Shown: positions 1 to 23,759 of the stretch, piece by piece
Position numbering within the stretch: position 1 is the first letter of the stretch
How the letters are laid out: every line of letters starts with the position of its first letter
UHGV virus genome: UHGV-2044750
Strand: one strand, 5' to 3'
DNA: 27,057 nt
DNA from: a virus
The notes under the pieces: generated by a model
Databases searched by the model: none
What the model saw: only the letters and a program-made list of their open reading frames with translations
Told to the model about the DNA's origin: nothing
Program-made: the position numbers and the translations under genes

Positions 1-142
1 CTTCGGCGGGTTTTTGTTTTTATTTTCAACGCGTTTGAAGTTCTGGACGGTGCCGGAATAGAATCAAAAATACTTAAGTAGCGCGCAGGGATAAGAGGGA
101 TGGTCCCTTAAAGGGGAGAGCTAATTATCCGGAAGGATTCTG

Positions 143-394
143 ATGATGAACATCGAAGAACTGCGTAAAATTTTTTGTGAAGATGGCCTCTATGCTGTGT
201 GCGTTGAAAATGGAAATCTTGTTAGTCATTACCGCATTATGTGTTTGCGAAAGAATGGGGCTGCGTTAATTAATTTTGTGGATGGTCGAGTGACAGACGG
301 ATTTATCTTGCGCGAAGGTGAGTTTGTCACTTCATTACAGGCACTGAAAGAGATCGGAATAAAAGCAGGCTTTTCAGCTTTTGCAGAAGAATAA
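143..394 (+). CDS. Hypothetical protein (83 aa), nin-region small ORF
   Basis: ORF with GGAAGGA Shine-Dalgarno about 8 nt upstream of ATG 143; no function recognised. Confidence 0.55.
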   Translation: MMNIEELRKIFCEDGLYAVCVENGNLVSHYRIMCLRKNGAALINFVDGRVTDGFILREGEFVTSLQALKEIGIKAGFSAFAEE

Positions 395-460
395 ACTCAT
401 CTACAATCTTGCGCGGGGCTGAACTCCCGCTGAGTAACACCGTGCCACCGGAGAAAACCG

Positions 461-739
461 ATGGCACGCAACGTAAAATATTACAATTCTGATAATTCGC
501 CCGTTCTTGTCTGCACGCACGAGCGGTATTCTCACGCATTCAAGTCTGAATGGTTCCAACACCCTCCATGCACTGAAGAGCAGGCTGAATGGATAATTCA
601 GTGTTACCGCAGGCGCGGATACGAGGTTAAGAAAGCCCTTAGCCTCGACTACCGTCACTGGATAATCTCAGTCAGATTGCCTTACTCCGAACGCCCACCA
701 CGTGCGTCCCGCACTTTCCAGCAACGGATCTGGAGGTAA
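461..739 (+). CDS. Hypothetical protein (92 aa); may be a separate small gene or a frameshifted N-terminal part of the downstream DUF968 gene
   Basis: ATG 461 preceded by GGAGAAAA SD; its 3' end overlaps the next ORF in another frame; C-terminal 20 aa look low-complexity. Confidence 0.4.
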   Translation: MARNVKYYNSDNSPVLVCTHERYSHAFKSEWFQHPPCTEEQAEWIIQCYRRRGYEVKKALSLDYRHWIISVRLPYSERPPRASRTFQQRIWR

Positions 740-1790
740 CGTGCGGGTATTACTTAGACCTGTTCTGGTGCCTGAGCTTGGGCTGGTGGTCCTTAAGCCG
801 GGCCGTGAATCCATACAGATATTTCATAATCCTCGAGTGCTGGTGGAACCGGAACCAAAAAGCATGCGTAATCTGCCATCCGGAGTCGTTCCTGCCGTTC
901 GCCAGCCGCTGGCGGAAGACAAAACATTGCTGCCGTTTTTTAGTAACGAACGGGTGATTCGTGCTGCTGGCGGTGTTGGCGCATTGTCTGACTGGCTATT
1001 ACGTCATGTTACATCCTGCCAGTGGCCTAATGGCGATTACCATCACTCTGAAACAGTCATTCACCGTTATGGTACCGGCGCAATGGTGTTGTGTTGGCAC
1101 TGCGACAACCAACTGCGTGACCAGACATCGGAATCACTGGAGCTGCTTGTTCAACAAAATCTGACAGCATGGGTGATTGACGTCATCCGTCACGCAATAA
1201 GCGGTACGCAGGAGCGGGAATTATCTTTGGCTGAATTATCCTGGTGGGCGGTCTGCAATCAGGTGGTGGATGAACTACCTGAGGCTGTATCGCGTCGTTC
1301 GCTGGGATTACCAGCGGAAAAAATCTGCTCGGTGTACCGCGAAAGCGACATCGTACCGGGAGAGCAGACCGCCACCAGCATATTGAAACAACGCACAAAA
1401 AATCTTGCACCGTTGCCTTACGCCCACCAGCAACAAAAAACACCACAGGAAAAGACGGTGGTAAGCATCACCGTTGATCCGGAGTCTCCGGAATCCTTCA
1501 TGAAACGACCTAAACGTCGCCGCTGGGTAAATGAGAAATACACACGCTGGGTAAAGACACAGCCGTGTGCGTGTTGTGGTAAGCCAGCGGACGATCCTCA
1601 TCATCTGATTGGTCATGGTCAGGGTGGAATGGGAACAAAATCCCACGATATTTTCACGCTACCGCTGTGTCGGGAGCATCACAACGAGCTTCATGCGGAT
1701 CCGCTGGCGTTCGAAGAAAAGCATGGTTCCCAGGTTGATTTAATTTTTCGTTTTCTTGATCACGCTTTTGCAACCGGCGTGCTCGGGTAA
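702..1790 (+). CDS. DUF968-like prophage protein with C-terminal HNH-type zinc-finger motif
   Basis: C-terminus CACCGKP...DPHHLIGHG...CREHHNELH is an HNH-like Cys/His motif; sits immediately upstream of rusA as in lambdoid nin regions. GTG start at 702 is uncertain; ATG 864 is an alternative. Confidence 0.6.
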   Translation: MRPALSSNGSGGNVRVLLRPVLVPELGLVVLKPGRESIQIFHNPRVLVEPEPKSMRNLPSGVVPAVRQPLAEDKTLLPFFSNERVIRAAGGVGALSDWLLRHVTSCQWPNGDYHHSETVIHRYGTGAMVLCWHCDNQLRDQTSESLELLVQQNLTAWVIDVIRHAISGTQERELSLAELSWWAVCNQVVDELPEAVSRRSLGLPAEKICSVYRESDIVPGEQTATSILKQRTKNLAPLPYAHQQQKTPQEKTVVSITVDPESPESFMKRPKRRRWVNEKYTRWVKTQPCACCGKPADDPHHLIGHGQGGMGTKSHDIFTLPLCREHHNELHADPLAFEEKHGSQVDLIFRFLDHAFATGVLG

Positions 1791-1802
1791 AAGAGGTTAC
1801 TG

Positions 1803-2162
1803 ATGCGTATAGAGTTTGTTTTGCTTTACCCGCCGACGGTGAACACCTACTGGCGACGTCGTGGCAGCACATATTTTGTATCAAAAGCCGGTGAGCGTTA
1901 TCGCCGGGATGTGGCACTTATTGTTCGCCAGCAGCGGCTGAAATTAAACCTGTCCGGAAGGCTGGCGATAAAGATTATTGCCGAGCCACCGGATAAGCGC
2001 CGCCGTGACCTGGACAATATTCTGAAAGCGCCGCTGGATGCGCTGACGCATGCGGGGGTGCTAATGGACGATGAGCAGTTTGATGAAATCAATATTGTAC
2101 GTGGTCAGCCAGTATCTGGTGGACGGCTGGGTGTGAAGATTTACAAAATTGAGAGTGAGTGA
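1803..2162 (+). CDS. rusA: Crossover junction endodeoxyribonuclease RusA (Holliday junction resolvase)
   Basis: 119 aa; motifs YPPTVNTYWRR and DKRRRDLDNILKAPLDAL match the RusA family; AAGAGG SD 6 nt upstream of ATG. Confidence 0.9.
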   Translation: MRIEFVLLYPPTVNTYWRRRGSTYFVSKAGERYRRDVALIVRQQRLKLNLSGRLAIKIIAEPPDKRRRDLDNILKAPLDALTHAGVLMDDEQFDEINIVRGQPVSGGRLGVKIYKIESE

Positions 2163-2170
2163 GCGTAAAT

Positions 2171-2701
2171 ATGATATATCCGGAAATTACAGGCAAAAGC
2201 GGCGAACATTTACGCCTGAACACGCTGGAAGCAGTCTGGATCCAGGGGAAATTACGGATGTGGGGGCGGTGGTCGTATATCGGTGGGGGTAAATCCGGAA
2301 ATATGTTTAACCGGTTACTGGTTTCGAAAAAGCTGACGAAAACAGCAGTTAATGAGGTTTTACGCAGCATGAAGAAATCCGGGCTGGAAAAACCGGAACT
2401 TGAGGCATTTTTTCGGGATATGACCAGAGGGAAGCAGAAGAGCTGGTTGTCACATTGTACAGACACAGAGGCGTTGATTATTGATCGCGTTATCAGTGAG
2501 GTGCTTGGGGAATATCCCGGGCTAATCAATATTCTCCGGCAAAGGTACGAAGGACGGGGAATGAGTAAGAGAAAAATGGCAGAATGTTTAAATCGTACTC
2601 ACCCGGAATGGTGTTTCAGCACATGTGAGAAACGTATTGCAGGTTGGTTAGCCGTGGCTGAACACATGCTTTATGTACCTATGCACGATTCATTTCGATA
2701 A
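2171..2701 (+). CDS. Q: Late-gene antitermination protein Q (Q-like)
   Basis: Position directly after rusA and before a terminator, as for Q in lambdoid phages; Cys/His-containing C-terminal region. Family assignment is from synteny plus weak recognition. GTG 2159 is an alternative start. Confidence 0.55.
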   Translation: MIYPEITGKSGEHLRLNTLEAVWIQGKLRMWGRWSYIGGGKSGNMFNRLLVSKKLTKTAVNEVLRSMKKSGLEKPELEAFFRDMTRGKQKSWLSHCTDTEALIIDRVISEVLGEYPGLINILRQRYEGRGMSKRKMAECLNRTHPEWCFSTCEKRIAGWLAVAEHMLYVPMHDSFR

Positions 2702-2797
2702 AAAAAGCTTGCTTTTTTACGCAGAAACAGCTTGAATTCCTGTAAGCTTCGCAAAGCTGTATCGCGAGGCGAAATGCAAGTTTTTTCGCACAAGGAA

Positions 2798-2819
2798 GCC
2801 ACCGGAAGGTGGTTTTTTT
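2798..2819 (+). terminator. Rho-independent terminator downstream of Q (candidate tR')
   Basis: Stem CCACC / GGTGG with GGAA loop followed by a 7-T run. Confidence 0.5.
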
Positions 2820-2942
2820 GTGTCCGTAATATACAGCAGCGCAATAAATTCGCTGGTGGTTATTAATACCGTTCTTTCAGGTTGCTGGCTTTTTCGACAA
2901 GAGTTATTGGTGTGTCACGTTAACCGGAAAAGGGAAAAAGAC

Positions 2943-3140
2943 ATGCTGAAACAGCAGGATATGACAGAAACCGCCAGAGTGGTGTTTAATGAATTAAGCG
3001 TTACCGACCCGGCGACAGTCGGGGAGATTGCGCAGAATACTTACCTTTCACGCGAACGCTGCCAGTTAATACTGACCCAGCTGGTTATGGCGGGTCTGGC
3101 AGACTATCAGTTTGGTTGTTACAGACGCCTTCAGTCCTGA
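2943..3140 (+). CDS. Small winged-helix protein (65 aa), PapI/FaeA-like
   Basis: ATG 2943 with AGGGA SD 7 nt upstream; the segment TVGEIAQNTYLSRERCQLILTQLVMAGLA resembles the PapI/FaeA helix-turn-helix pattern. The fold assignment is a pattern-based inference. Confidence 0.45.
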   Translation: MLKQQDMTETARVVFNELSVTDPATVGEIAQNTYLSRERCQLILTQLVMAGLADYQFGCYRRLQS

Positions 3141-3167
3141 AGGCTTTTTTATTTGTGGTAAATGGGC

Positions 3168-3198
3168 GGCTGGTGGGTGTAAGGGGCACCCACCAGCC
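3168..3198 (+). promoter_or_regulatory. Perfect 12-bp stem-loop between the small wHTH ORF and the methyltransferase
   Basis: GGCTGGTGGGTG (3168-3179) and its exact reverse complement CACCCACCAGCC (3187-3198), 7-nt loop; no T-run follows on the + strand. Confidence 0.35.
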
Positions 3199-3290
3199 AT
3201 CTGCTCATGCGTTGGGTTCACAAGCAAACCTCAGGCCCACTGCTTTGCGCAAAAGCAGAATGAGCCTATCAGAGACAGGCTTAATGATCC

Positions 3291-4340
3291 ATGCTTAATA
3301 CTGTAAAAATATCCAGTTGTGAGTTAATCAACGCCGACTGCCTGGAATTTATGCGGTCGTTACCCGAAAATTCTGTTGACCTGATAGTCACGGACCCGCC
3401 GTACTTCAAAGTGAAACCCGAGGGCTGGGATAACCAGTGGGCGGGTGATGAAGATTACCTGAAGTGGCTGGACCAGTGTCTTGCGCAGTTCTGGCGGGTG
3501 CTGAAACCTGCCGGAAGTCTTTACCTGTTCTGTGGCCATCGTCTGGCATCTGACACCGAAATCATGATGCGTGAGCGGTTTAACGTGCTGAACCATATCA
3601 TCTGGGCAAAGCCGTCCGGACGCTGGAACGGGTGCAACAAGGAAAGCCTGCGGGCGTATTTCCCCGCCACAGAGCGCATTCTGTTCGCAGAGCATTATCA
3701 GGGGCCGTATCGTCCGAAAGATGCCGGGTATGAGGCGAAGGGTAGGGCACTGAAACAGCATGTGATGGCCCCGCTGATTGCTTACTTTCGTGATGCGCGC
3801 GCTGTCCTGGGGATAACGGCAAAACAGATTGCAGATGCCACAGGAAAGAAAAACATGGTGTCGCACTGGTTCAGTGCCGGTCAGTGGCAGCTGCCGAACG
3901 AAAGCGATTATCTGAAATTACAGGCACTGTTTGCCCGGGTGGCAGAAGAGAAGCATCAGCGGGGTGAACTGGAAAAGCCCCACCACCAGCTGGTGGATAC
4001 GTATGCCTCTCTGAACCGACAGTATGCGGAGCTGCAGAGTGAATATAAGCATCTGCGGCGGTATTTTGGTGTGACGGCGCAGGTGCCGTACACGGATGTG
4101 TGGACACATAAACCGGTGCAGTTCTATCCCGGGAAACATCCGTGCGAAAAACCGGCAGAAATGCTGCAGCAGATAATCAGCGCAAGCAGTCGTCCGGGTG
4201 ACCTGGTTGCAGATTTTTTTATGGGCTCAGGTTCAACGGTAAAAGCGGCACTGGCGCTCGGGCGTCGTGCAATTGGCGTTGAGCTGGAGACTGAACGTTT
4301 TGAGCAGACAGTCAGGGAAGTTCAGGATTTAATCGTTTGA
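3291..4340 (+). CDS. DNA methyltransferase, beta-class (N6-adenine or N4-cytosine), orphan (no adjacent restriction gene)
   Basis: DPPY catalytic motif near the N-terminus (LIVTDPPYF) and AdoMet-binding motif near the C-terminus (DLVADFFMGSGST), i.e. beta-class motif order; 349 aa. Confidence 0.9.
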   Translation: MLNTVKISSCELINADCLEFMRSLPENSVDLIVTDPPYFKVKPEGWDNQWAGDEDYLKWLDQCLAQFWRVLKPAGSLYLFCGHRLASDTEIMMRERFNVLNHIIWAKPSGRWNGCNKESLRAYFPATERILFAEHYQGPYRPKDAGYEAKGRALKQHVMAPLIAYFRDARAVLGITAKQIADATGKKNMVSHWFSAGQWQLPNESDYLKLQALFARVAEEKHQRGELEKPHHQLVDTYASLNRQYAELQSEYKHLRRYFGVTAQVPYTDVWTHKPVQFYPGKHPCEKPAEMLQQIISASSRPGDLVADFFMGSGSTVKAALALGRRAIGVELETERFEQTVREVQDLIV

Positions 4341-4389
4341 AACGGATGAGATTGCAGAATTAATTTCGCACCATTATTATTCTGGTCCC

Positions 4390-4465
4390 GGCCCTTTAGC
4401 TCAGTGGTGAGAGCGAGCGACTCATAATCGCCAGGTCGCTGGTTCAAATCCAGCAAGGGCCACCA
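4390..4465 (+). tRNA. ileZ: tRNA-Ile (anticodon CAU, lysidine-type AUA reader)
   Basis: Cloverleaf folded by hand: 7-bp acceptor stem GGCCCTT/AAGGGCC, anticodon loop CTCATAA, T-loop TTCAAAT, 3' CCA encoded; closely resembles E. coli tRNA-Ile2. Symbol from the Stx-phage ileZ-argN-argO trio. Confidence 0.85.
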
Positions 4466-4472
4466 TCACATA

Positions 4473-4549
4473 CCGCCATTAGCTCATCAGGAAAGAGCGC
4501 CAGCTTTCGAAGCTGGTTGCGCGGAGTTCGGGTCCCCGAAGGCGGTCCA
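4473..4549 (+). tRNA. argN: tRNA-Arg (anticodon UCG) with one mismatch each in acceptor and T stems
   Basis: Anticodon stem CCAGC/GCTGG with loop TTTCGAA; acceptor CCGCCAT/AAGGCGG has an A-A mispair; T-stem has an A-C mispair; CCA encoded. Symbol is tentative, by order in the trio. Confidence 0.65.
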
Positions 4550-4562
4550 TTATCTGTATCCT

Positions 4563-4639
4563 GCGTTGTTAGCTCAGCCGGACAGAGCAATTGCCTTCTA
4601 AGCAATCGGTCACTGGTTCGAATCCAGTACAACGCGCCA
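4563..4639 (+). tRNA. argO: tRNA-Arg (anticodon UCU, reads AGA)
   Basis: Perfect acceptor stem GCGTTGT/ACAACGC, anticodon loop CTTCTAA, T-loop TTCGAAT, CCA encoded. Symbol is tentative, by order in the trio. Confidence 0.85.
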
Positions 4640-4654
4640 CACTTATTTTCCCTG

Positions 4655-4679
4655 GCTCGCTTTTGCGGGCTTTTTTTTT
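4655..4679 (+). terminator. Rho-independent terminator after the tRNA cluster
   Basis: 6-bp stem GCTCGC/GCGGGC (one G-U pair), TTTT loop, followed by a 9-T run. Confidence 0.55.
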
Positions 4680-4875
4680 AAATGTCTCACAATTCAGGCG
4701 GTTGACTGTTGTCTGGTTTGCGGGGAGTTTGTTAAAAGAAACTGGCATGGTGAATCCCCCTGTGCGGAGGGGCAATCAGCGAGTAGGTATATGGGATAAT
4801 CGCGGATTCAGGTGCTGGTACTGAATTCACCGGGAGGCACCCGGCACCATGCAATGGCACATAGCGCCACTCTCC

Positions 4876-4910
4876 AGCCCCTCTCCGGAGGGGCTGTTTA
4901 TATTGATTTT
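4876..4910 (+). terminator. Rho-independent terminator
   Basis: Perfect 8-bp stem AGCCCCTC/GAGGGGCT with TCCG loop, followed by GTTTATATTGATTTT. Confidence 0.45.
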
Positions 4911-4930
4911 GTCAGATGTGAGTAAACTCC

Positions 4931-5266
4931 TTATGGACTTTGTTGTTTTAGTCCATAAGGACATATTTGCAGAGTGCAACGGTTATTAAAGCATTCATTC
5001 AATACGTTATCTGTATTTGTAGGGCATTCCTGGCTGTTTTTGATTAAATTCCAGAATGTTTTATTGAATGGTACTACGTTGTAAATGGTTACAGGTAGCA
5101 CTTTGTTATTGAGCATGATACCTGTGTGAGTCAGTGTAAATATACTTTCAGGAGGTAAGAAAGCATCCGATTGATACCAGATTATCAATTTTATTTTACT
5201 CCATATGACTGAAAAAGATATTCCGCATGATGGCTGGATAACTGTATCAATCACAATCCACTTCAT
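4931..5266 (-). CDS. Hypothetical protein (111 aa), AT-rich orphan ORF at the stx-equivalent locus
   Basis: Minus-strand ORF with AAGGAAA SD about 5-7 nt upstream of ATG; stop codon lies inside an 11-bp perfect inverted repeat (4929-4960); low GC relative to flanks; no family recognised. Confidence 0.5.
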
Positions 5267-5526
5267 TTAGTTTCCTTGTTTATGCCTTGCTGGTGATGTT
5301 CTGAAAAGTATAAATGATATTTTTGATTGTAAACCATAGAGCAGAATTATTTTTCTGATGTTGTTTATTGTTTATTTAAATGCAGGGTGGTTTATATCTC
5401 GTCTTGTAGTTTATCCATGCATATCTGCTTGATGATGAGGTTTTTATTTAAGGTATGGTTTTGTGTTTTTTCTGTATTACATGTCAGGTATTTTAAAGAA
5501 TTATTTTTCAGATGGTGGAAAGAACC

Positions 5527-7377
5527 ATGGCATTTAAACACTATGATGTTGTCAGGGCGGCGTCGCCGTCAGATCTTGCGGAAAAGCTGACACATAAACT
5601 GAAAGAAGGCTGGCAGCCGTTTGGTAGTCCGGTGGCCATAACCCCTTATACCCTGATGCAGGCGATTGCAGCAGAAGGTGATGTGGTCGTCAGTGGTGCA
5701 ACTGAGCCAGAGTGGTACTACGTCATCGTACTGGCCGGGCAATCCAATGCCATGGCTTATGGTGAAGGGCTTCCGCTTCCGGATTCATACGATGCGCCCC
5801 ATCCGCGCATTAAGCAACTGGCCCGTCGTAACACAGTGACTCCCGGTGGTGAAGTATGCGTATTTAACGACATCATTCCTGCTGACCATTGTCTGCATGA
5901 TGTTCAGGATATGAGTACGATTAACCATCCCCGGGCTGACCTGAGCAAAGGGCAGTACGGCTGTGTCGGACAGGGCTTACATATTGCCAAAAAACTGCTT
6001 CCGTATATCCCTAATAATGCGGGGATCCTGCTGGTACCATGCTGTCGTGGTGGTTCGGCATTCACCCAGGGCACGGAGGGGACATTCAGCGAGTCCACGG
6101 GGGCCAGTCAGGATTCGGCTCGCTGGGGAGTGGGTAAGCCGTTATATCAGGATCTGCTTTTCCGCACGAAGGCAGCATTGCAGAAAAACCCGAAAAACGT
6201 TTTGCTGGCGATATGCTGGATGCAGGGGGAATTCGATATGACGAATGCCAGTTACGCCCAGCAGCCAGCAGCATTTCTTGCAATGGTACAGCAGTTCCGT
6301 GCTGACTTTGCCGGGCTGGCGGCGCAGTGTCACGGTGGAAGTCCGGCATCAGTCCCCTGGATTTGTGGCGACACGACATACGCGTGGAAACAAGAACACG
6401 GTACGCAATATGAAGTGGTATATGGTGCATATAAAGGTAAAGAATCCCAGCAGATTTATTTTGTTCCCTTTATGACCGATGGTAGCGGAGTTAATACACC
6501 GACAAACAACCCGTCAGAAGATCCTGATATTGCCGGGTCTGGTTATTACGGTTCGGCATCCCGAACGAACAAAAACTGGGTATCATCAAATCGCCCGACG
6601 CATTTCAGCTCATGGGCGCGTCGTGGCATTATTCCCGATCGTATGGCAACTGCTATTCTGAACGTAGCCGGTCGCACCTTAGCCTTCATTAGTGGTAAGG
6701 CACCGGAAATCAAACCCTCGCCCGGCGGCGACACGCCATCGGGGCCGTCTGAAGATGCATCCGTACGCACAATCTCCCTGTTGCCGACAGCCGGAGATGC
6801 TGCTGCGCAGGGCTGGAGCATTAAGAATGGCGGAATTCAGTTGTCAGATGGTGTATTTAAGATCACCAAGCAGAGCAATAAAACCTGGTCCCTGATGCAT
6901 CCGGTGGATGACGCAATTACCCTGCTGACACAGGGCGGCAGACTGACCTGTAAGTTCCGCCTCTCAGGCGCACTGACCAACAATCAGTTCGGGCTGGGGA
7001 TTTATCTGTATACGGACGCTCCCGTTCCTGATGATGTGGCGATGACGGGTACTGGTAATCCGTTCCTGATGTCTTACTTCACTCAGACCACTGACGGCAG
7101 AGTGAATCTGATGCATCACAGGAAAGCCGGAAACACGAAGCTGGGGGAGTTCGGCGATTACGGTAACGACTGGCAGACGCTGGAGCTGGTGTTCACCGCC
7201 GGCAGTGCCACGGTTACTCCGAAACTGAATGGAGTGGCTGGCCCGGCATTCCAGGTTATAAAAGACAGTCTGACACTGGGACTGAATGCGCTGACGCTGA
7301 CGGATGTTACAAAAAGTGCAGCGTATGGCGTTGAGATAGAAAGTCTGGTGCTGGAGATAAATGCACCGGCAGCATAA
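5527..7377 (+). CDS. nanS: Prophage sialate O-acetylesterase, NanS-p type (DUF1737 N-domain plus SGNH/SASA esterase domain)
   Basis: N-terminus MAFKHYDVVRAASPSDLAEKL (DUF1737-like) and esterase block LAGQSNAMAYGEG (GQSN motif); about 616 aa; sits between the tRNA cluster and the lysis genes as nanS-p does in Stx-type prophages. The upstream in-frame ATG 5512 lacks an SD. Confidence 0.85.
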   Translation: MAFKHYDVVRAASPSDLAEKLTHKLKEGWQPFGSPVAITPYTLMQAIAAEGDVVVSGATEPEWYYVIVLAGQSNAMAYGEGLPLPDSYDAPHPRIKQLARRNTVTPGGEVCVFNDIIPADHCLHDVQDMSTINHPRADLSKGQYGCVGQGLHIAKKLLPYIPNNAGILLVPCCRGGSAFTQGTEGTFSESTGASQDSARWGVGKPLYQDLLFRTKAALQKNPKNVLLAICWMQGEFDMTNASYAQQPAAFLAMVQQFRADFAGLAAQCHGGSPASVPWICGDTTYAWKQEHGTQYEVVYGAYKGKESQQIYFVPFMTDGSGVNTPTNNPSEDPDIAGSGYYGSASRTNKNWVSSNRPTHFSSWARRGIIPDRMATAILNVAGRTLAFISGKAPEIKPSPGGDTPSGPSEDASVRTISLLPTAGDAAAQGWSIKNGGIQLSDGVFKITKQSNKTWSLMHPVDDAITLLTQGGRLTCKFRLSGALTNNQFGLGIYLYTDAPVPDDVAMTGTGNPFLMSYFTQTTDGRVNLMHHRKAGNTKLGEFGDYGNDWQTLELVFTAGSATVTPKLNGVAGPAFQVIKDSLTLGLNALTLTDVTKSAAYGVEIESLVLEINAPAA

Positions 7378-7589
7378 TAAAAAAAGCCAGCGCCCTCTCT
7401 GAAGGACGCTGGCTAAAACGGGTAGATGTACTTCACATGATACTTATACTTGGCAGTACATTTTCTGACAGACAGTGACGGATGTTGTCAAGATATTGTG
7501 TCATTTATAACCTGAATCAGGGGTTGGCCGGAATGTTATCTGGCATTTTTAGCAGAGCCTGAATGCCATAATCACGGCTCCCGGCGTTG

Positions 7590-7626
7590 GCCGTCAGTGG
7601 GTGACACTGGCGGCTTTTTTGTTTTT
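7590..7626 (+). terminator. Strong rho-independent terminator immediately upstream of the lysis cassette
   Basis: 10-bp stem GCCGTCAGTG/CACTGGCGGC (one G-U pair), 5-nt loop, followed by TTTTTTGTTTTT. Confidence 0.55.
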
Positions 7627-7670
7627 CTTTACTTTCATTTTCTGTCGGCGGTGACGGAGACATACATCAG

Positions 7671-7877
7671 ATGGAAAAAATCACAACAGGTGTGTCATAC
7701 ACCACGTCAGCGGTGGGGACGGGATACTGGTTACTGCAGCTGCTGGACAAAGTCTCTCCGTCCCAGTGGGTGGCAATAGGTGTGCTGGGGAGTCTGCTGT
7801 TTGGCCTGCTGACGTATCTGACAAACCTTTATTTCAAGATTAAAGAAGATAAGCGCAAGGCTGCGAGAGGTGAATAA
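7671..7877 (+). CDS. S: Class II holin (pinholin), phage-21 S21 type
   Basis: 68 aa with two TM segments; the C-terminal part ([20 protein letters not shown]) matches my recollection of S21; GGAGA SD 10 nt upstream; stop overlaps the endolysin start (TAATG). Confidence 0.85.
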
Positions 7878-8377
7878 TGCCTCCATCATTACGAANNNNN
7901 NNNNNNNNNNNNNNNNNNNNNNNNNNNGCTGTTGCCATAGCGTCTGTGCTCATCACTGGTCCGAGTGGTGACGATGGCCTGGAAGGTGTCAGCTACATAC
8001 CATACGAAGATATCGTTGGCGTATGGACTGTATGTCACGGACACACCGGAAAAGACATCATGCCCGGTAAAACGTATACCGAAGCAGAATGCAAAGCCCT
8101 CCTGAATAAAGACCTTGCCACGGTCGCCAGACAAATAAACCCGTACATCAACGTCGATATACCGGAAACAACGCGCGGCGCTCTTTACTCGTTCGTTTAC
8201 AACGTGGGCGCTGGCAATTTCAGAACATCGACGCTTCTTCGCAAAATAAACCAGGGCGATATCAAAGGCGCATGTGATCAGCTACGGCGCTGGACATACG
8301 CTGGCGGTAAGCAATGGAAAGGGCTGATGACTCGCCGTGAGATTGAGCGTGAAGTCTGTTTGTGGGGGCAACAATGA
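7877..8377 (+). CDS. R: SAR endolysin (T4-lysozyme-like muramidase, R21 type); N-terminal SAR region partly masked by an N-run
   Basis: MPPSLR...[14 protein letters not shown] signal-anchor-release N-terminus and lysozyme core ([11 protein letters not shown]..., YNVGAGNF); 32 N at 7896-7927 are in frame. Confidence 0.85.
7896..7927. other. Run of 32 N (unresolved or masked bases) inside the endolysin gene
   Basis: Literal n characters in the sequence. Confidence 1.
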
Positions 8378-8810
8378 GCAGAGTAACCGCGATTATCTAC
8401 GTTCTGGTCATCTGCCTCATCGTCTGCCTTTCATGGGCTGTTAATCATTACCGTGATAACGCCATCGCCTACAAAGAGCAGCGCGATAAAGCCACATCCA
8501 TCATCGCTGATATGCAGAAGCGGCAACGTGATGTAGCAGAACTTGACGCCAGATACACAAAGGAGCTTGCTGATGCTAATGCGACTATCGAAAGTCTCCG
8601 TGCTGATGTTTCTGCTGGGCGTAAGCGCCTGCAAGTCGCCGCCACCTGTGCAAAGTCNNNNNNNNNNNNNNNNNNATGGGCAATGGAGAAACCCCAGGAC
8701 TTACAGCAGATGCTGAACTCAATTATTACCGTCTCCGAAGTGGAATCGACAGGATAACCGCGCAGGTTAACTACTTGCAGGAGTACATTAGGACGCAATG
8801 CCTTCGATGA
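8374..8810 (+). CDS. Rz: Rz i-spanin (inner membrane spanin); reading frame is broken across an N-run
   Basis: N-terminus [39 protein letters not shown] is Rz-like up to the N-run; after it the Rz C-terminus ([29 protein letters not shown], stop 8808-8810) continues in a different frame, so the N-run length is not the true length. Confidence 0.75.
8573..8757 (+). CDS. Rz1: Rz1 o-spanin (outer membrane lipoprotein) embedded in Rz in an alternative frame; interrupted by the N-run
   Basis: AAGGAG SD 8 nt upstream of ATG 8573; signal peptide [20 protein letters not shown] with lipobox, then a proline-rich stretch (KSPPPV); after the N-run the frame ending at 8757 has an Rz1-like tail ([13 protein letters not shown]). 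Confidence 0.6.
8658..8675. other. Run of 18 N (unresolved or masked bases) inside Rz/Rz1
   Basis: Literal n characters; both Rz and Rz1 change frame across it. Confidence 1.
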
Positions 8811-8882
8811 TAGCGATAATTTTCCCATTATCTTTTATATGCGTGATTTTAGTTAGTTTTAGTCGCAACACGAATAAAACAG

Positions 8883-8909
8883 AGAACCACCCGCTATACG
8901 AGTGGTTCT
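8883..8909. terminator. Hairpin between convergent Rz and the minus-strand moron gene (likely bidirectional terminator)
   Basis: 8-bp stem AGAACCAC/GTGGTTCT with 11-nt loop; U-rich flank on the minus-strand side. Confidence 0.4.
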
Positions 8910-8926
8910 GATTTACACTTTTGAAA

Positions 8927-9157
8927 CTAAAAGCTAAATACTTGAGCAAGAACAGCTAACGCTGCGCAAAAAGCAGCCCGTTTATTCCATTTACTTTGTA
9001 TTTCAATGGCTTTAAAACAACCCAGTGATGAGAAACTGCCTTGTTCCGTTTTTGGTGGGTGTTCTTTGGAAGATGCAAAACATGAAATAATCCAAAAAAT
9101 GGCGGAAAAAATTCCAAAAATTATTGAAGGCAAATGATGCTCTTTCAAAAACTCCAT
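8927..9157 (-). CDS. Small hydrophobic protein (76 aa), possible lipoprotein, in the position lambda uses for bor
   Basis: Minus-strand ORF convergent with Rz; hydrophobic N-terminus LPSIIFGIFSAIFWIISC ending in a lipobox-like IISC; not similar to lambda Bor by eye. Confidence 0.5.
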   Translation of the reverse strand: MEFLKEHHLPSIIFGIFSAIFWIISCFASSKEHPPKTEQGSFSSLGCFKAIEIQSKWNKRAAFCAALAVLAQVFSF

Positions 9158-9832
9158 GACTTAACTCTCTTAAAAGTTGCTAAACATCGCTCGCAAACAA
9201 GAAAGAAAAGTTCTGTTGCGAGCACTCCACAATTTAAACGCCACACAAGCAGCTATTAGGTGGACGGTTCCAAGATTGCTATCAACTGCCACCCGAATAC
9301 CGTCAAAACTTGACGTCCAACCAAGAATTATTGAGTTGTAAACTCAACGCAATGATCTGGTTGGTATAAATGTGACATATGTCATGAATCGACTAGTTGA
9401 GATAGTCAAGATGGGCTTGCTTGACATCATCACCACAACCGGAGCCAACAATGGCAGATTGCGTTACCCAGATTTGATAAAGGCATTTTAGCCTGACATA
9501 ACTATGCACTGTATCGTCGCCGTATTCCCGCATCAACAGAGACCACAGCCCGAGAGGGAGACTCCTCTGCGCGAGTGTGCGGGGATAATCAAAAACGATA
9601 CACACCGGGGTTTACCGTGTTAACGGAGCGCGGCGTTGTCCCCTCATGGTCGCTGGTCCGGTGCGATGGTGGAAGAAACCGGACGATGTGTTACCTCGCA
9701 AACTCTGTTATGTCATGTGTCTGATTTGTGATTTAAGTCGGATAATTGTCATTGCCATTAAGCAGAGGATTGATGACCGACAGGGCTGCATTGTTAGAAT
9801 AAGACTTATTCTTATCTATGCCGGGAATAAAA

Positions 9833-10159
9833 ATGAAAAGAAATCTTCCGTTAATTATTTTGTTGTCTTCTTTGGTTATGGGCTGTACGCAACATAAAAC
9901 AGATATGCCTCGACAGTTGGTTAAGGCATTACCACAATATCCGGCCTATGCCGCGGCAAATTATATAAAGGGACGGGTTGATGTGAAGTTTGATATTGGT
10001 GCTGATGGTACTGTCACCCGAATTGAGTTTATCCGTTCAGAGCCGCACCATCTGTTTGATGAGCAGGTTGTAAAGGCGATGGCAAAATGGCGATTTGAGA
10101 AGGACAAGCCGCGTAAAGGCGTGAAGAAAACATTTATCTTTAGTCCTTCAGCACCCTGA
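9833..10159 (+). CDS. Lipoprotein with TonB C-terminal-like domain (108 aa)
   Basis: Signal peptide MKRNLPLIILLSSLVMGC with lipobox LVMGC (Thr at +2); the mature part aligns by eye to the E. coli TonB C-terminal domain (YP..A....I.G.V.VKFD...DG.V......S.P...F...V..AM..WR.E..KP). ATG 9818 is an alternative start. Confidence 0.75.
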   Translation: MKRNLPLIILLSSLVMGCTQHKTDMPRQLVKALPQYPAYAAANYIKGRVDVKFDIGADGTVTRIEFIRSEPHHLFDEQVVKAMAKWRFEKDKPRKGVKKTFIFSPSAP

Positions 10160-10669
10160 TTATTTTATCAGAAGTTAATTATCACTCTGTTGCTATTCAG
10201 TACATCCCTGCAGGGTAAAGTCTTGTTTCGCCGGATATGAAGATGAAATATTGTTAGAAGACAGTAGCTACCGGTTCCTGTAACCGAACGTTCATTTCTC
10301 GTTATTTTTCATGCTGGCCGGGCGCAGGTGCTTTGCATCTGTTGCCAGCCTTCTCCTGCAGGCTTCAATAACCCATGCCGAAAAATTACCCGATCCCTTA
10401 CGTTCAAGGGCAATATGGATTTGATTAATCATCTGGTTTGGGAAGCTTTATTTTTTGATGACATTGTGTTTTTCCGTGTTCAGTGCTGCTGATTTGTATT
10501 GTCTTAAGATGTCTTTACGTTAAGTTGACACAGATCAATTAATGCATGACTTGGACAAAATTGATTATTTGTCGTGGTTTTATGGTGTACGTGGGATGTG
10601 TGATGGTATTTATATAAATGATAATTATTATCATTTATTGGGTCCTTTCCGGCGATCCGGCAGGCTACG

Positions 10670-10681
10670 GGGCGGCGACCT
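10670..10681. other. cosN: 12-nt cohesive-end sequence GGGCGGCGACCT (lambda-type)
   Basis: Exact match to the lambda cohesive end; the flanks ...TTTCCGGCGATCCGGCAGGCTACG | and | CGCGGGTTTTCGCTATTTATGAAAATTTTCCGG are close to my recollection of the lambda genome ends. Confidence 0.85.
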
Positions 10682-10721
10682 CGCGGGTTTTCGCTATTTA
10701 TGAAAATTTTCCGGGGAAAAT

Positions 10722-10830
10722 CATGTCGGTACTTCTCGAACATAACTATTTGTTTTTTCTAATATCGAATCCGTAAAAGGTCCGACATGAAAACGCCTAA
10801 AAAAGTCATTTTCGGGCACTTTCATGTCGG
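10722..10830. repeat. Candidate cosB R-site repeats: three copies of a CATGTCGG core (10722-10729 direct, 10782-10789 inverted, 10823-10830 direct)
   Basis: Repeats lie between cosN and the Nu1 start, where lambda has its R3/R2/R1 sites, but with a different sequence; an AT-rich spacer between copies 1 and 2 could hold an IHF site. Confidence 0.4.
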
Positions 10831-10857
10831 CCCCTGTATTTATTGTGAGACTGTTTC

Positions 10858-11377
10858 ATGAAGGTTAATAAAAAGAAACTTGCCGAAATTTTCAACGTGG
10901 ATCCGCGAACGATTGAACGCTGGCAGTCTCAGGGACTCCCTTGTGTCTCCGGAGGTGGTAAGGGCGTTGAATCTGTATTTGATACCGCCATGGCAATTCA
11001 GTGGTATGCGCAGAGGGAAGCTGATATCGAAAATGAAAAACTCCGTAAAGAGGTTGAGGATTACAGGGCTGCCAGTGAGGCAGATCTCCAGCCTGGGACT
11101 ATTGAGTACGAACGCCATCGACTTACGCGTGCGCAGGCCGACGCACAGGAGCTGAAGAATGCCAGAGACTCCGCAGAGGTGGTGGAAACCGCATTCTGTA
11201 CTTTCGTGCTGTCACGGATCGCAGGTGAAATTGCCAGTATTCTTGACGGGATCCCTCTCTCGGTACAGCGGCGTTTTCCGGAACTGGAAAACCGACATGT
11301 TGATTTCCTGAAACGGGATATCATCAAAGCCATGAACAAAGCAGCCGCGCTGGATGAACTGATACCGGGGTTGCTGA

Positions 11378-11403
<26 letters not shown>
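10858..11403 (+). CDS. Nu1: Terminase small subunit Nu1 (N-terminal DNA-binding domain diverged from lambda, C-terminal two-thirds lambda-identical)
   Basis: 181 aa; from about residue 75 ([57 protein letters not shown]...) it matches lambda Nu1 as I recall it; the first ~75 aa are clearly related but diverged. Confidence 0.95.
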
Positions 11404-15084
<3,681 letters not shown>

Positions 15085-21205: not shown

Positions 21206-23759
21206 ACCGGTAGGCGATCTGGTCGTTGATTTGAGTCTGGATGAGGCCAGATTTGACGAGCAGATGGCCAGAGTCAGGCGTCATTTTTCCGGTACGGAAA
21301 GTGATGCGAAAAAAACAGCGGCAGTCGTTGAACAGTCAATGAACCGGCAGGCGCTGGCTGCACAGAAAGCGGGGATTTCCGTCGGACAGTATAAAGCCGC
21401 CATGCGTATGCTTCCTGCACAGTTCACCGACGTGGCCACGCAGCTTGCAGGCGGGCAAAGTCCGTGGCTGATCCTGCTGCAACAGGGGGGGCAGGTTAAG
21501 GACTCCTTCGGCGGGATGATCCCCATGTTCAGGGGGCTTGCCGGTGCGATCACCCTGCCGATGGTCGGGGCCACCTCGCTAGCGGTGGCGACCGGTGCGC
21601 TGGCGTATGCCTGGTATCAGGGCAACTCAACCCTGTCCGATTTCAACAAAACGCTGGTCCTTTCCGGCAATCAGTCGGGTCTGACGGCAGATCGCATGCT
21701 GGTCCTGTCCAGAGCCGGGCAGGCGGCAGGGCTGACGTTTAACCAGACCAGCGAGTCACTCAGCGCACTGGTTAAGGCGGGAGTAAGCGGTGAGGCTCAG
21801 ATTGCATCCATCAGCCAGAGTGTGGCGCGTTTCTCCTCTGCATCCGGCGTGGAGGTGGACAAGGTCGCTGAAGCCTTCGGGAAGCTGACCACAGACCCGA
21901 CGTCAGGGCTGACAGCGATGGCACGCCAGTTCCATAACGTGACGGCGGAGCAGATTGCGTATGTTGCTCAGTTGCAGCGTTCCGGCGATGAAGCCGGGGC
22001 ATTGCAGGCGGCGAACGAGGCCGCGACGAAAGGGTTTGATGACCAGACCCGCCGCCTGAAAGAGAACATGGGTACGCTGGAGACCTGGGCAGACAGGACA
22101 GTGCGGGCATTCAAATCCATGTGGGATGCGGTGCTGGATATTGGTCGTCCTGATACCGCGCAGGAGATGCTGATTAAGGCAGAGGCTGCGTTTAAGAAAG
22201 CGGACGACATCTGGAGTCTGCGCAAGGATGATTATTTTGTTAACGATGAAGCGCGGGCGCGTTACTGGGATGATCGTGAAAAGGCCCGTCTTGCGCTTGA
22301 AGCCGCGAGAAAGAAGGCTGAACAGCAGAGTCAACAGGACAAAAATGCGCAGCAGCAGAGCGATACTGAAGCGTCACGGCTGAAATATACCGAAGAGGCG
22401 CAGAAGGCTTACGAACGGCTGCAGACGCCGCTGGAGAAATATACCGCCCGTCAGGAAGAACTGAACAAGGCACTGAAGGACGGGAAAATTCTGCAGGCAG
22501 ATTACAACACGCTGATGGCGGCGGCGAAAAAGGACTATGAAGCGACGCTGAAAAAGCCGAAACAGTCCGGCGTGAAGGTGTCTGCGGGCGATCGTCAGGA
22601 AGACAGTGCTCATGCTGCCCTGCTGACGCTTCAGGCTGAACTCCGGACGCTGGAGAAGCATGCCGGAGCAAATGAGAAAATCAGCCAGCAGCGCCGGGAT
22701 TTGTGGAAGGCGGAAAATCAGTTCGCGGTACTGGAGGAGGCGGCACAACGTCGCCAGCTATCCGCACAGGAGAAATCCCTGCTGGCGCATAAAGATGAGA
22801 CGCTGGAGTACAAACGCCAGCTGGCTGCACTTGGCGATAAGGTCACGTATCAGGAGCACCTGAACGCGCTGGCGCAGCAGGCGGATAAATTCGCACAGCA
22901 GCAACGGGCAAAACGGGCCGCCATTGAGGCGAAAAACCGGGGGCTGACTGACCGGCAGGCAGCGCGGGAAGCCACGGAACAGCGTCTGAAGGAACAGTAT
23001 GGCGATAATCCGCTGGCGCTGAATAACGTCATGTCAGAGCAGAAAAAGACCTGGGCGGCTGAAGACCAGCTTCGCGGGAGCTGGATGGCAGGCCTCAAGT
23101 CCGGCTGGAGTGAGTGGGAAGAGAGCGCCACGGACAGTATGTCGCAGGTTAAAAGTGCAGCCACGCAGACCTTTGATGGTATTGCACAGAATATGGCGGC
23201 GATGCTGACCGGCAGTGAACAGAACTGGCGCAGCTTCACCCGCTCCGTGCTGTCCATGATGACAGAAATTCTGCTTAAGCAGGCAATGGTGGGGATTGTC
23301 GGGAGTATCGGCAGCGCCATTGGCGGTGCTACCGGTGGCGGCGCATCAGCGTCAGGCGGTACAGCCATTCAGGCAGCTGCGGCGAAATTCCATTTTGCGA
23401 CCGGAGGATTTACGGGAACCGGCGGCAAATATGAGCCAGCGGGGATTGTTCACCGTGGTGAGTTTGTCTTCACGAAGGAGGCAACCAGCCGGATTGGCGT
23501 GGGGAATCTCTACCGGCTGATGCGCGGCTATGCCACCGGTGGTTATGTCGGTACACCGGGCAGTCTGGCTGACAGCCGGTCGCAGGCGTCCGGGACGTTT
23601 GAGCAGAATAACCATGTGGTGATTAACAACGACGGCACGAACGGGCAGATAGGTCCGGCTGCTCTGAAGGCGGTGTATGACATGGCCCGCAAGGGTGCCC
23701 GTGATGAAATTCAGACACAGATGCGTGATGGTGGCCTGTTCTCCGGAGGTGGACGATGA
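21198..23759 (+). CDS. H: Tail tape measure protein H
   Basis: 853 aa near-identical to lambda gpH by recollection. Confidence 0.95.
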   Translation: MAEPVGDLVVDLSLDEARFDEQMARVRRHFSGTESDAKKTAAVVEQSMNRQALAAQKAGISVGQYKAAMRMLPAQFTDVATQLAGGQSPWLILLQQGGQVKDSFGGMIPMFRGLAGAITLPMVGATSLAVATGALAYAWYQGNSTLSDFNKTLVLSGNQSGLTADRMLVLSRAGQAAGLTFNQTSESLSALVKAGVSGEAQIASISQSVARFSSASGVEVDKVAEAFGKLTTDPTSGLTAMARQFHNVTAEQIAYVAQLQRSGDEAGALQAANEAATKGFDDQTRRLKENMGTLETWADRTVRAFKSMWDAVLDIGRPDTAQEMLIKAEAAFKKADDIWSLRKDDYFVNDEARARYWDDREKARLALEAARKKAEQQSQQDKNAQQQSDTEASRLKYTEEAQKAYERLQTPLEKYTARQEELNKALKDGKILQADYNTLMAAAKKDYEATLKKPKQSGVKVSAGDRQEDSAHAALLTLQAELRTLEKHAGANEKISQQRRDLWKAENQFAVLEEAAQRRQLSAQEKSLLAHKDETLEYKRQLAALGDKVTYQEHLNALAQQADKFAQQQRAKRAAIEAKNRGLTDRQAAREATEQRLKEQYGDNPLALNNVMSEQKKTWAAEDQLRGSWMAGLKSGWSEWEESATDSMSQVKSAATQTFDGIAQNMAAMLTGSEQNWRSFTRSVLSMMTEILLKQAMVGIVGSIGSAIGGATGGGASASGGTAIQAAAAKFHFATGGFTGTGGKYEPAGIVHRGEFVFTKEATSRIGVGNLYRLMRGYATGGYVGTPGSLADSRSQASGTFEQNNHVVINNDGTNGQIGPAALKAVYDMARKGARDEIQTQMRDGGLFSGGGR

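Follow-up and report, generated by a model that had tools for sequence, protein, structure and literature searches.

An anti-adaptor gene, iraL, beside an empty stx insertion point in the late region of a stx-negative lambdoid prophage

Results

iraL lies between STnc100 and nanS-p

We analyzed positions 4640–5526 of a 27,057-nucleotide stretch of viral DNA (UHGV virus genome UHGV-2044750; the whole stretch is called the window here) and found that this interval is, with a probability of about 0.9, a moron region in the late operon of a stx-negative lambdoid prophage. The small RNA gene STnc100 and the anti-adaptor gene iraL, two known regulators that would both be expressed in the lysogen, lie tail to tail in it, the site that holds stx in Stx-converting phages (slot A, upstream of STnc100) is empty, and iraL sits in a second site between STnc100 and nanS-p (slot B). 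iraL, the protein it encodes and the action of that protein are already known from earlier work, as is the neighboring sRNA, and roughly one in four complete E. coli genomes has the gene annotated; the window itself is of little consequence. As corrected here, the moron hotspot of the late region has two neighboring slots rather than one. The features of iraL are as follows:

4931–5266, minus strand: iraL coding sequence, 111 aa, RssB anti-adaptor of the IraM/IraL family (identity to CFT073 IraL; NCBIfam, PDB and PHROG matches)
5267–5299, minus strand: iraL 5′ UTR with the transcription start at 5299 (published 5′ RACE sequence ACATCACCAGCAAGGCATAAACAAGGAAACCA; PMC4045071)
5307–5333, minus strand: putative iraL sigma-70 promoter, −10 TATACT at 5307–5312 and −35 TTTACA at 5328–5333 (read from the sequence relative to the RACE start)
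5334–5526, no strand: AT-rich region (about 30% GC) upstream of iraL, up to the nanS-p start codon (composition)
4930–4961, minus strand: stable hairpin at the iraL 3′ end, overlapping the stop codon (RNA fold)

Judged by its sequence, the ORF at 4931–5266 is iraL, a known gene that was characterized by experiment in strain CFT073. This assignment follows from the amino acid identity to CFT073 IraL and from the match of the RACE sequence at 5299. The encoded protein is identical at 111/111 residues to WP_000871291.1 of CFT073, which was named IraL by Hryckowian et al. (2014, mBio; PMC4045071), and the coding sequence differs from that of CFT073 at two positions in 336 bp, both synonymous. The window ORF thus falls within the definition of iraL used in that study, at least 95% identity to CFT073 iraL across the full coding region. 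In CFT073 this protein is encoded by C_RS06710, which belongs to a prophage integrated beside potC at the potABCD (potB) locus, and PGAP annotates the ORF under the same accession in many E. coli genomes. The protein matches the NCBIfam family NF007393, 'anti-adapter protein IraM', with 162 bits (cutoff 121) over residues 1–110 of 111, and PHROG 4407 with an E value of 3e-73. A phmmer search against the PDB aligned residues 1–78 without gaps to 8TWD_A, the IraM core with the beta-barrel that binds RssB (E 9.1e-32), and a Pfam scan of the ORF returned no family.

IraL of CFT073 binds RssB and stabilizes RpoS in log phase, as established by immunoblot, stability assay, two-hybrid and co-purification, and its mode of interaction with RssB is distinct from that of other anti-adaptors (PMC4045071). 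Expression of iraL in CFT073 is 1.6 log2-fold higher at 37°C than at 23°C (PMC12890032), and a fur mutant of this strain has higher IraL levels (PMC7157518).

We considered whether the ORF could be IraM proper, the PhoP-activated anti-adaptor of Mg2+ starvation in K-12, carried by another prophage. PGAP and NCBIfam give it the name of IraM, and there is one PhoP-box-like repeat with 1 mismatch at 5362–5378. K-12 IraM (b1160; structure with RssB in PDB 8TWD) is in the same NF007393 family, can be aligned with IraL over its whole length and has the same four conserved cysteines in its tail. However, the two proteins share 61.7% amino acid identity (58.9% according to PMC4045071; 71% nucleotide identity between the coding sequences), compared with 100% to IraL, and IraL has a 4-residue C-terminal extension, QQSP. 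The PhoP-box-like matches, 8 across the window against 4.5 ± 2.2 expected, are not above chance, and the upstream regions of iraL and K-12 iraM have no detectable similarity. K-12 iraM sits by icdC at the e14 boundary, where we found no STnc100, nanS-p or common flanking DNA, and the homology is limited to the coding sequence. The published regulation and RssB-binding mode of K-12 IraM also differ from those of IraL, which acts in log phase through its own type of RssB interaction. We therefore regard IraM proper as a very unlikely identity for this ORF.

The four cysteines of the IraL tail (residues 81, 92, 97 and 102, at about 4961–5026 on the minus strand) are conserved in the allele of Stx phages as well as in K-12 IraM. 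The C-terminal tail that bears them was removed from the crystallized IraM construct and was called less conserved and flexible there.

The putative promoter hexamers of iraL are shared with CFT073

The published 5′ RACE sequence of iraL matches the minus strand of the window from 5299 at 31 of 32 nucleotides, the single mismatch being at 5269. Sigma-70-like −10 and −35 elements have been reported for iraL (PMC4045071), and the hexamers of the putative promoter in the window are the same as those of CFT073. Between −100 and +33 there are three differences from CFT073, at 5269, 5300 and 5327, the latter two in the promoter flanks. Our sigma-70 scan missed this promoter because the 15-bp spacer is outside the criteria of the scan. 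Its two hits were ruled out as the iraL promoter, since they do not agree with the RACE start site. Further upstream, 5334–5526 is conserved with CFT073 and is collinear, at 68% identity, with the region upstream of the ira gene in the Stx2a phage Stx2_EH2201.

At the other end of the gene, RNA folding of 4865–4975 (minus strand) gave a 12-bp stem, with −40.4 kcal/mol for the region and a z-score of −6.0. The hairpin has no U-tract after it and is non-canonical as a terminator, a role which it may have on the strength of the predicted fold. We note that the hairpin encodes the QQSP extension missing from IraM, and that its loop, AAAACAACAA, is C/A-rich as in GcvB target sites, probably by chance.

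The interval also contains a complete STnc100 gene

The original prediction took the whole of 4640–5526 to be an AT-rich cassette that is bounded by two terminators and holds a single minus-strand ORF. The composition bears this out for 4906–5526, where the GC content drops to 32.7% (window mean 53.3%; z = −3.6). The 621-bp stretch with the lowest GC content in the whole 27 kb begins at 4893. The proximal part, 4640–4905, has a normal GC content of 51.9%. The minus-strand ORF is real, but it is not alone, as the interval also holds a plus-strand sRNA gene:

4654–4679, plus strand: intrinsic terminator of the tRNA cluster, a 7-bp stem (hairpin 4654–4671) followed by T9 to 4679 (terminator scan)
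4680–4682, no strand: slot A, the stx insertion point, empty (alignments with 933W and Stx2_EH2201 are unbroken to 4680 and restart at 4683)
4716–4905, plus strand: STnc100-family prophage sRNA gene, full length, including a terminator hairpin at 4875–4896 (Rfam RF02076)

The STnc100 match scored 132.4 bits (gathering score 47; E 6e-30) and covered model positions 1–206. Both terminator hairpins were found where they had been placed, and the region has three terminator-like sites against 1.2 ± 1.0 in shuffled sequences. A homologue of the first hairpin is annotated in 933W as 'possible rho-independent terminator upstream of the stx genes'. The second, at 4875–4896 plus tail in the terminator scan, lies inside the STnc100 gene, and it is thus the terminator of the sRNA itself and no boundary of an AT-rich cassette.

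STnc100 (RF02076) is related to PasD (Zhu, Shabalina and Storz 2026, preprint); the preprint on PasD names neither iraL nor IraM. In phage vB_EcoS-640R1 we observed two diverged STnc100 copies in tandem upstream of iraL, at 5562–5755 and 6031–6219, with an identity of about 72% to each other's counterparts. In place of the trio, the phage has a single tRNA gene, the ileZ homologue with the CAT anticodon.

The backbone is that of an Stx phage without stx

The late region around the interval has these further features:

2159–2701, plus strand: Q-type late antiterminator, DUF1133/Phage_antitermQ (Pfam PF06576, E 1e-110; PF06530, E 1.4e-8)
2820–3140, plus strand: ORF of unknown function
3291–4340, plus strand: N6/N4 DNA methyltransferase (Pfam PF01555, E 3.6e-44)
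4390–4639, plus strand: trio of tRNA genes of the ileZ (CAU)/argN (UCG)/argO (UCU) type (ARAGORN, Rfam tRNA matches)
4390–4465, plus strand: tRNA 1, anticodon CAT (Met according to ARAGORN; the 933W homologue is ileZ; tRNA-Ile according to PGAP)
4473–4549, plus strand: tRNA 2, Arg TCG (ARAGORN)
4563–4639, plus strand: tRNA 3, Arg TCT (ARAGORN)
5527–7377, plus strand: nanS-p, prophage sialate O-acetylesterase (Pfam DUF1737, SASA, DUF6645)
7671–8757, plus strand: lysis cassette with holin at 7671–7877, lysozyme at 7877–8377 and Rz/Rz1 at 8362–8757 (Pfam PF04971, PF00959, PF03245, PF06085)

As the Q-type antiterminator gene is on the plus strand, late transcription runs in the plus direction. Pfam, ARAGORN and Rfam matches together give the late order of Stx phages, Q, methylase, ileZ/argN/argO, STnc100, nanS-p and S/R/Rz, as had been predicted for the genes around the tRNA trio and nanS-p. 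The closest Stx phage is the Stx2a phage Stx2_EH2201, to which the methylase-tRNA block (2845–4680) is 93.8% identical, and more than 150 records of Stx2-converting phages hold a sequence similar to this block. The methyltransferase gene is about 94% identical at the nucleotide level to its counterpart upstream of the tRNAs in Stx2a/2d phages, the tRNA trio with its terminator is 90% identical to the ileZ-argN-argO region of 933W, and the nanS-p start codon at 5527 is homologous to that of 933W and to the PGAP annotation. The prediction that no stx-like ORF is present also held: tblastn with Stx1A/B and Stx2A/B gave hits at E ≥ 1 only, and there is no Stx-like coding potential throughout the window. 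Hence on sequence grounds the backbone of the window is of the Stx-phage type, without stx. Among complete E. coli genomes we did not find the exact mosaic of window positions 1–12000, the best match having 93% coverage at 93% identity; EPEC E2348/69 covers 87% of these positions at 94% identity.

The stx insertion point and iraL are in two different slots

To place iraL relative to stx, we compared the gene orders obtained by local BLAST and Rfam searches:

933W: tRNAs, terminator, stx2AB, STnc100 (plus), AsxR (minus), nanS-p
Stx1 phage 75/02: stx1AB, STnc100 (plus), AgvB-like (minus), nanS-p
Stx2a phage Stx2_EH2201: tRNAs, terminator, stx2AB, STnc100 (plus), ira gene (minus), nanS-p
CFT073: tRNAs, 642-bp DUF3927 segment, STnc100, iraL (minus), truncated nanS-p
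Window: tRNAs, terminator, nothing, STnc100, iraL (minus), nanS-p

Between the equivalents of 4680 and 4683, 933W and Stx2_EH2201 hold stx2AB and its promoter on about 1.33 kb, and CFT073 holds a different segment of 642 bp with DUF3927. In the Rfam maps, the gene immediately 3′ of the toxin B-subunit gene is STnc100, both in 933W and Stx2_EH2201 (stx2B) and in phage 75/02 (stx1B). The late region of a Stx-converting phage has stxAB between the tRNA terminator and STnc100, and in the window nothing stands there. By these alignments, the content of slot A is stx, the DUF3927 segment or nothing, and that of slot B is an anti-sRNA or an ira gene. This layout agrees with the arrangement 'moron CDS, then convergent sRNAs, then conserved ORF' of Tree et al. 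(2014; PMC4104026).

We also observed that three right-hand edges, those of the stx2 block in 933W and Stx2_EH2201, the DUF3927 segment in CFT073 and the empty site in the window, coincide at the sequence TCACAATTCAG (4687–4697), where the STnc100 module starts. This common edge suggests a recurrent recombination boundary.

The original prediction held that the AT-rich segment is a cassette that replaced stxAB in a sole cargo slot between the tRNAs and nanS-p. It was right that the region carries something other than stx, the known gene iraL, which is located beside the stx insertion point and not in it. For the replacement itself one could cite the absence of stx from a backbone of the Stx-phage type and the under-representation of iraL in EHEC/STEC (PMC4045071). 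In addition, a chimeric query of stx1AB, stx2AB and the iraL cassette found no iraL-type cassette beside stx1 or stx2 in 5,426 complete E. coli genomes, the coverage being at most 40%, equal to that of stx alone. However, the stx block maps to 4680–4682, upstream of STnc100, and iraL is downstream of STnc100. Because the stx point is upstream of STnc100 and empty, iraL is no replacement for stx. Moreover, stx2AB and a homologous ira gene occur together, in the same relative positions, in Stx2c/2a phages and in 232 genomes (see below), and the STnc100-ira-nanS-p module is collinear between the window (4683–6660) and Stx2_EH2201 at 68% identity. An alignment that showed the interval to be ordinary conserved backbone of Stx phages had been named as a refutation, and this collinearity shows just that for a class of Stx2 phages. 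We consider a replacement of stx by iraL very unlikely as well.

The reading of iraL as the occupant of slot B can be compared with two known systems. At the CFT073 locus, the 111-aa protein and the promoter hexamers are the same, and the neighbors are likewise the tRNA trio, STnc100 and nanS-p/DUF1737 followed by the holin gene. CFT073 is unlike the window in having a 642-bp DUF3927 segment at the stx site, where the window has nothing, and a truncated nanS-p, which is intact in the window; the two sequences differ at 19 nucleotides over 1,072 bp. The CFT073 potB prophage also contains an IS200 element between Q and the tRNA trio (IS200C transposase gene, 21701–22159), together with a STnc490 match of 146 bits (21568–21691). 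The window has neither of these, and its methylase gene stands there instead.

The second system is the pair of anti-sRNAs AsxR and AgvB of EHEC prophages (Tree et al. 2014, Mol Cell). Like iraL, they occupy slot B, in convergent orientation to STnc100 and opposite to late transcription, and are regulators of host networks expressed in the lysogen. Unlike iraL, they are Hfq-dependent RNAs of 51–60 nt without a protein gene. Neither AsxR (RF02703) nor AgvB (RF02702) had an Rfam match at E ≤ 1 in window positions 2500–8000, and the same Rfam tool detected both in 933W and 75/02.

iraL is widespread and a diverged ira allele adjoins stx2

The iraL coding sequence with its 5′ UTR is present in 1446 of 5,426 complete E. 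coli genomes, and in 1428 of these at least 80% of the interval 4640–5526 is found as a single piece, so the immediate context of iraL is essentially fixed. The least likely of the readings weighed here, that the module is a silent relic in a decaying prophage and AT-rich from relaxed selection, has on its side the degradation of many comparator prophages nearby (for example, the truncated nanS-p of CFT073, and DLI.5a with truncated RusA and methylase genes and without an annotated Q gene) and the two differences from CFT073 in the promoter flanks, but the protein is that of the functional CFT073 allele with synonymous changes only, more than 1,400 genomes carry the cassette at an identity of 95% or higher, the late region of the window is intact from Q to Rz, and K-12 iraM, also AT-rich in both the gene and its upstream region, is functional.

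A tblastn search with IraL returned 46 phage records. Four of these are of the iraL type at 98% identity, and most of the remaining records (about 72–74%) are Stx2c/2a/2k-converting phages, including 2851, 1717, WGPS4/6/8 and F349. Of the roughly 40 Stx2 phage records, most carry no annotation for the ira ORF. In Stx2_EH2201 (LC567829.1) it is at 9426–9749 on the minus strand, downstream of stx2B and STnc100, and encodes a 107-aa protein of the Ira family with 74.8% amino acid identity to IraL and 65.4% to K-12 IraM. The ira genes of 2851, 1717 and Stx2_EH2201 are like iraL in their position from STnc100 to nanS-p and their minus-strand orientation, and unlike it in having stx2AB immediately upstream and in their length of 107 aa.

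The block stx2B-STnc100-ira-nanS-p of Stx2_EH2201 is present in one piece in 232 of the 5,426 genomes. This co-occurrence of stx2 and ira, together with the collinearity described above, indicates that in one class of Stx2 phages STnc100-ira-nanS-p has long belonged to the backbone and has diverged; going by these comparisons, the module is not a recent replacement cassette. The diverged allele of the Stx2 phages is invisible to megablast with an iraL query. A mutual exclusion of iraL and stx, which we had entertained, was dropped, as a diverged ira allele adjoins stx2 in the closest Stx2a phage. The independence of slots A and B rests on this Stx-type allele, because the iraL type was never found beside stx.

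Discussion

The expected working of the locus can be outlined as follows. iraL would be a moron gene with a sigma-70 promoter of its own, which would drive transcription in the lysogen from 5299 along the minus strand, against the late operon. IraL would then bind RssB and prevent the delivery of RpoS to ClpXP, keeping RpoS high in exponential growth, as has been shown for the identical CFT073 protein. In the lysogen, the two plus-strand terminators may shield iraL from convergent transcription of the tRNA and STnc100 genes, and after induction the Q-modified polymerase would be expected to pass both terminators and run antisense across iraL. The AT-rich DNA could also be a target of H-NS-type silencing. 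This would be by extension from iraM, whose upstream DNA is unrelated in sequence and which is reported to be under H-NS regulation (Battesti 2012).

It is conceivable, though rather doubtful, that slot B is a dedicated place for regulators that act in the lysogen, either anti-sRNAs (AsxR, AgvB) or RssB anti-adaptors, always antisense to the late operon. With this orientation, prophage induction would switch such regulators off. The literature searched, which lacked most subscription journals, contained no paper on the position of iraL or IraM relative to Stx prophages and no functional study of the ira allele of Stx2 phages. If this allele is a working anti-adaptor, the Stx2 phages that carry it would raise RpoS in EHEC, tying lysogeny by a toxin phage to the general stress response. 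Travelling with stx2, it could bear on the RpoS-dependent stress resistance of STEC.

Other features of the window

Other features lie in patches of low GC content. A patch after the lysis genes has two minus-strand ORFs of unknown function, at 8469–8828 (phrog_35444) and 8927–9157 (phrog_14357), which are candidates for a second moron cluster. In a low-GC patch downstream of Rz, the plus-strand ORF at 9818–10159 encodes 113 aa with a lipoprotein signal (MKRNLPLIILLSSLVMGC). The PHROGs label of its family is 'Rz-like spanin', but by eye the sequence looks like a protein with a TonB C-terminal domain, and the gene is a candidate for another moron. Finally, a near-perfect palindrome resembling a Fur box (aaatGATAATtATTATCattt) is located at about 10612–10640, in the low-GC patch 10018–10779 and upstream of the small terminase gene (10858–11403).
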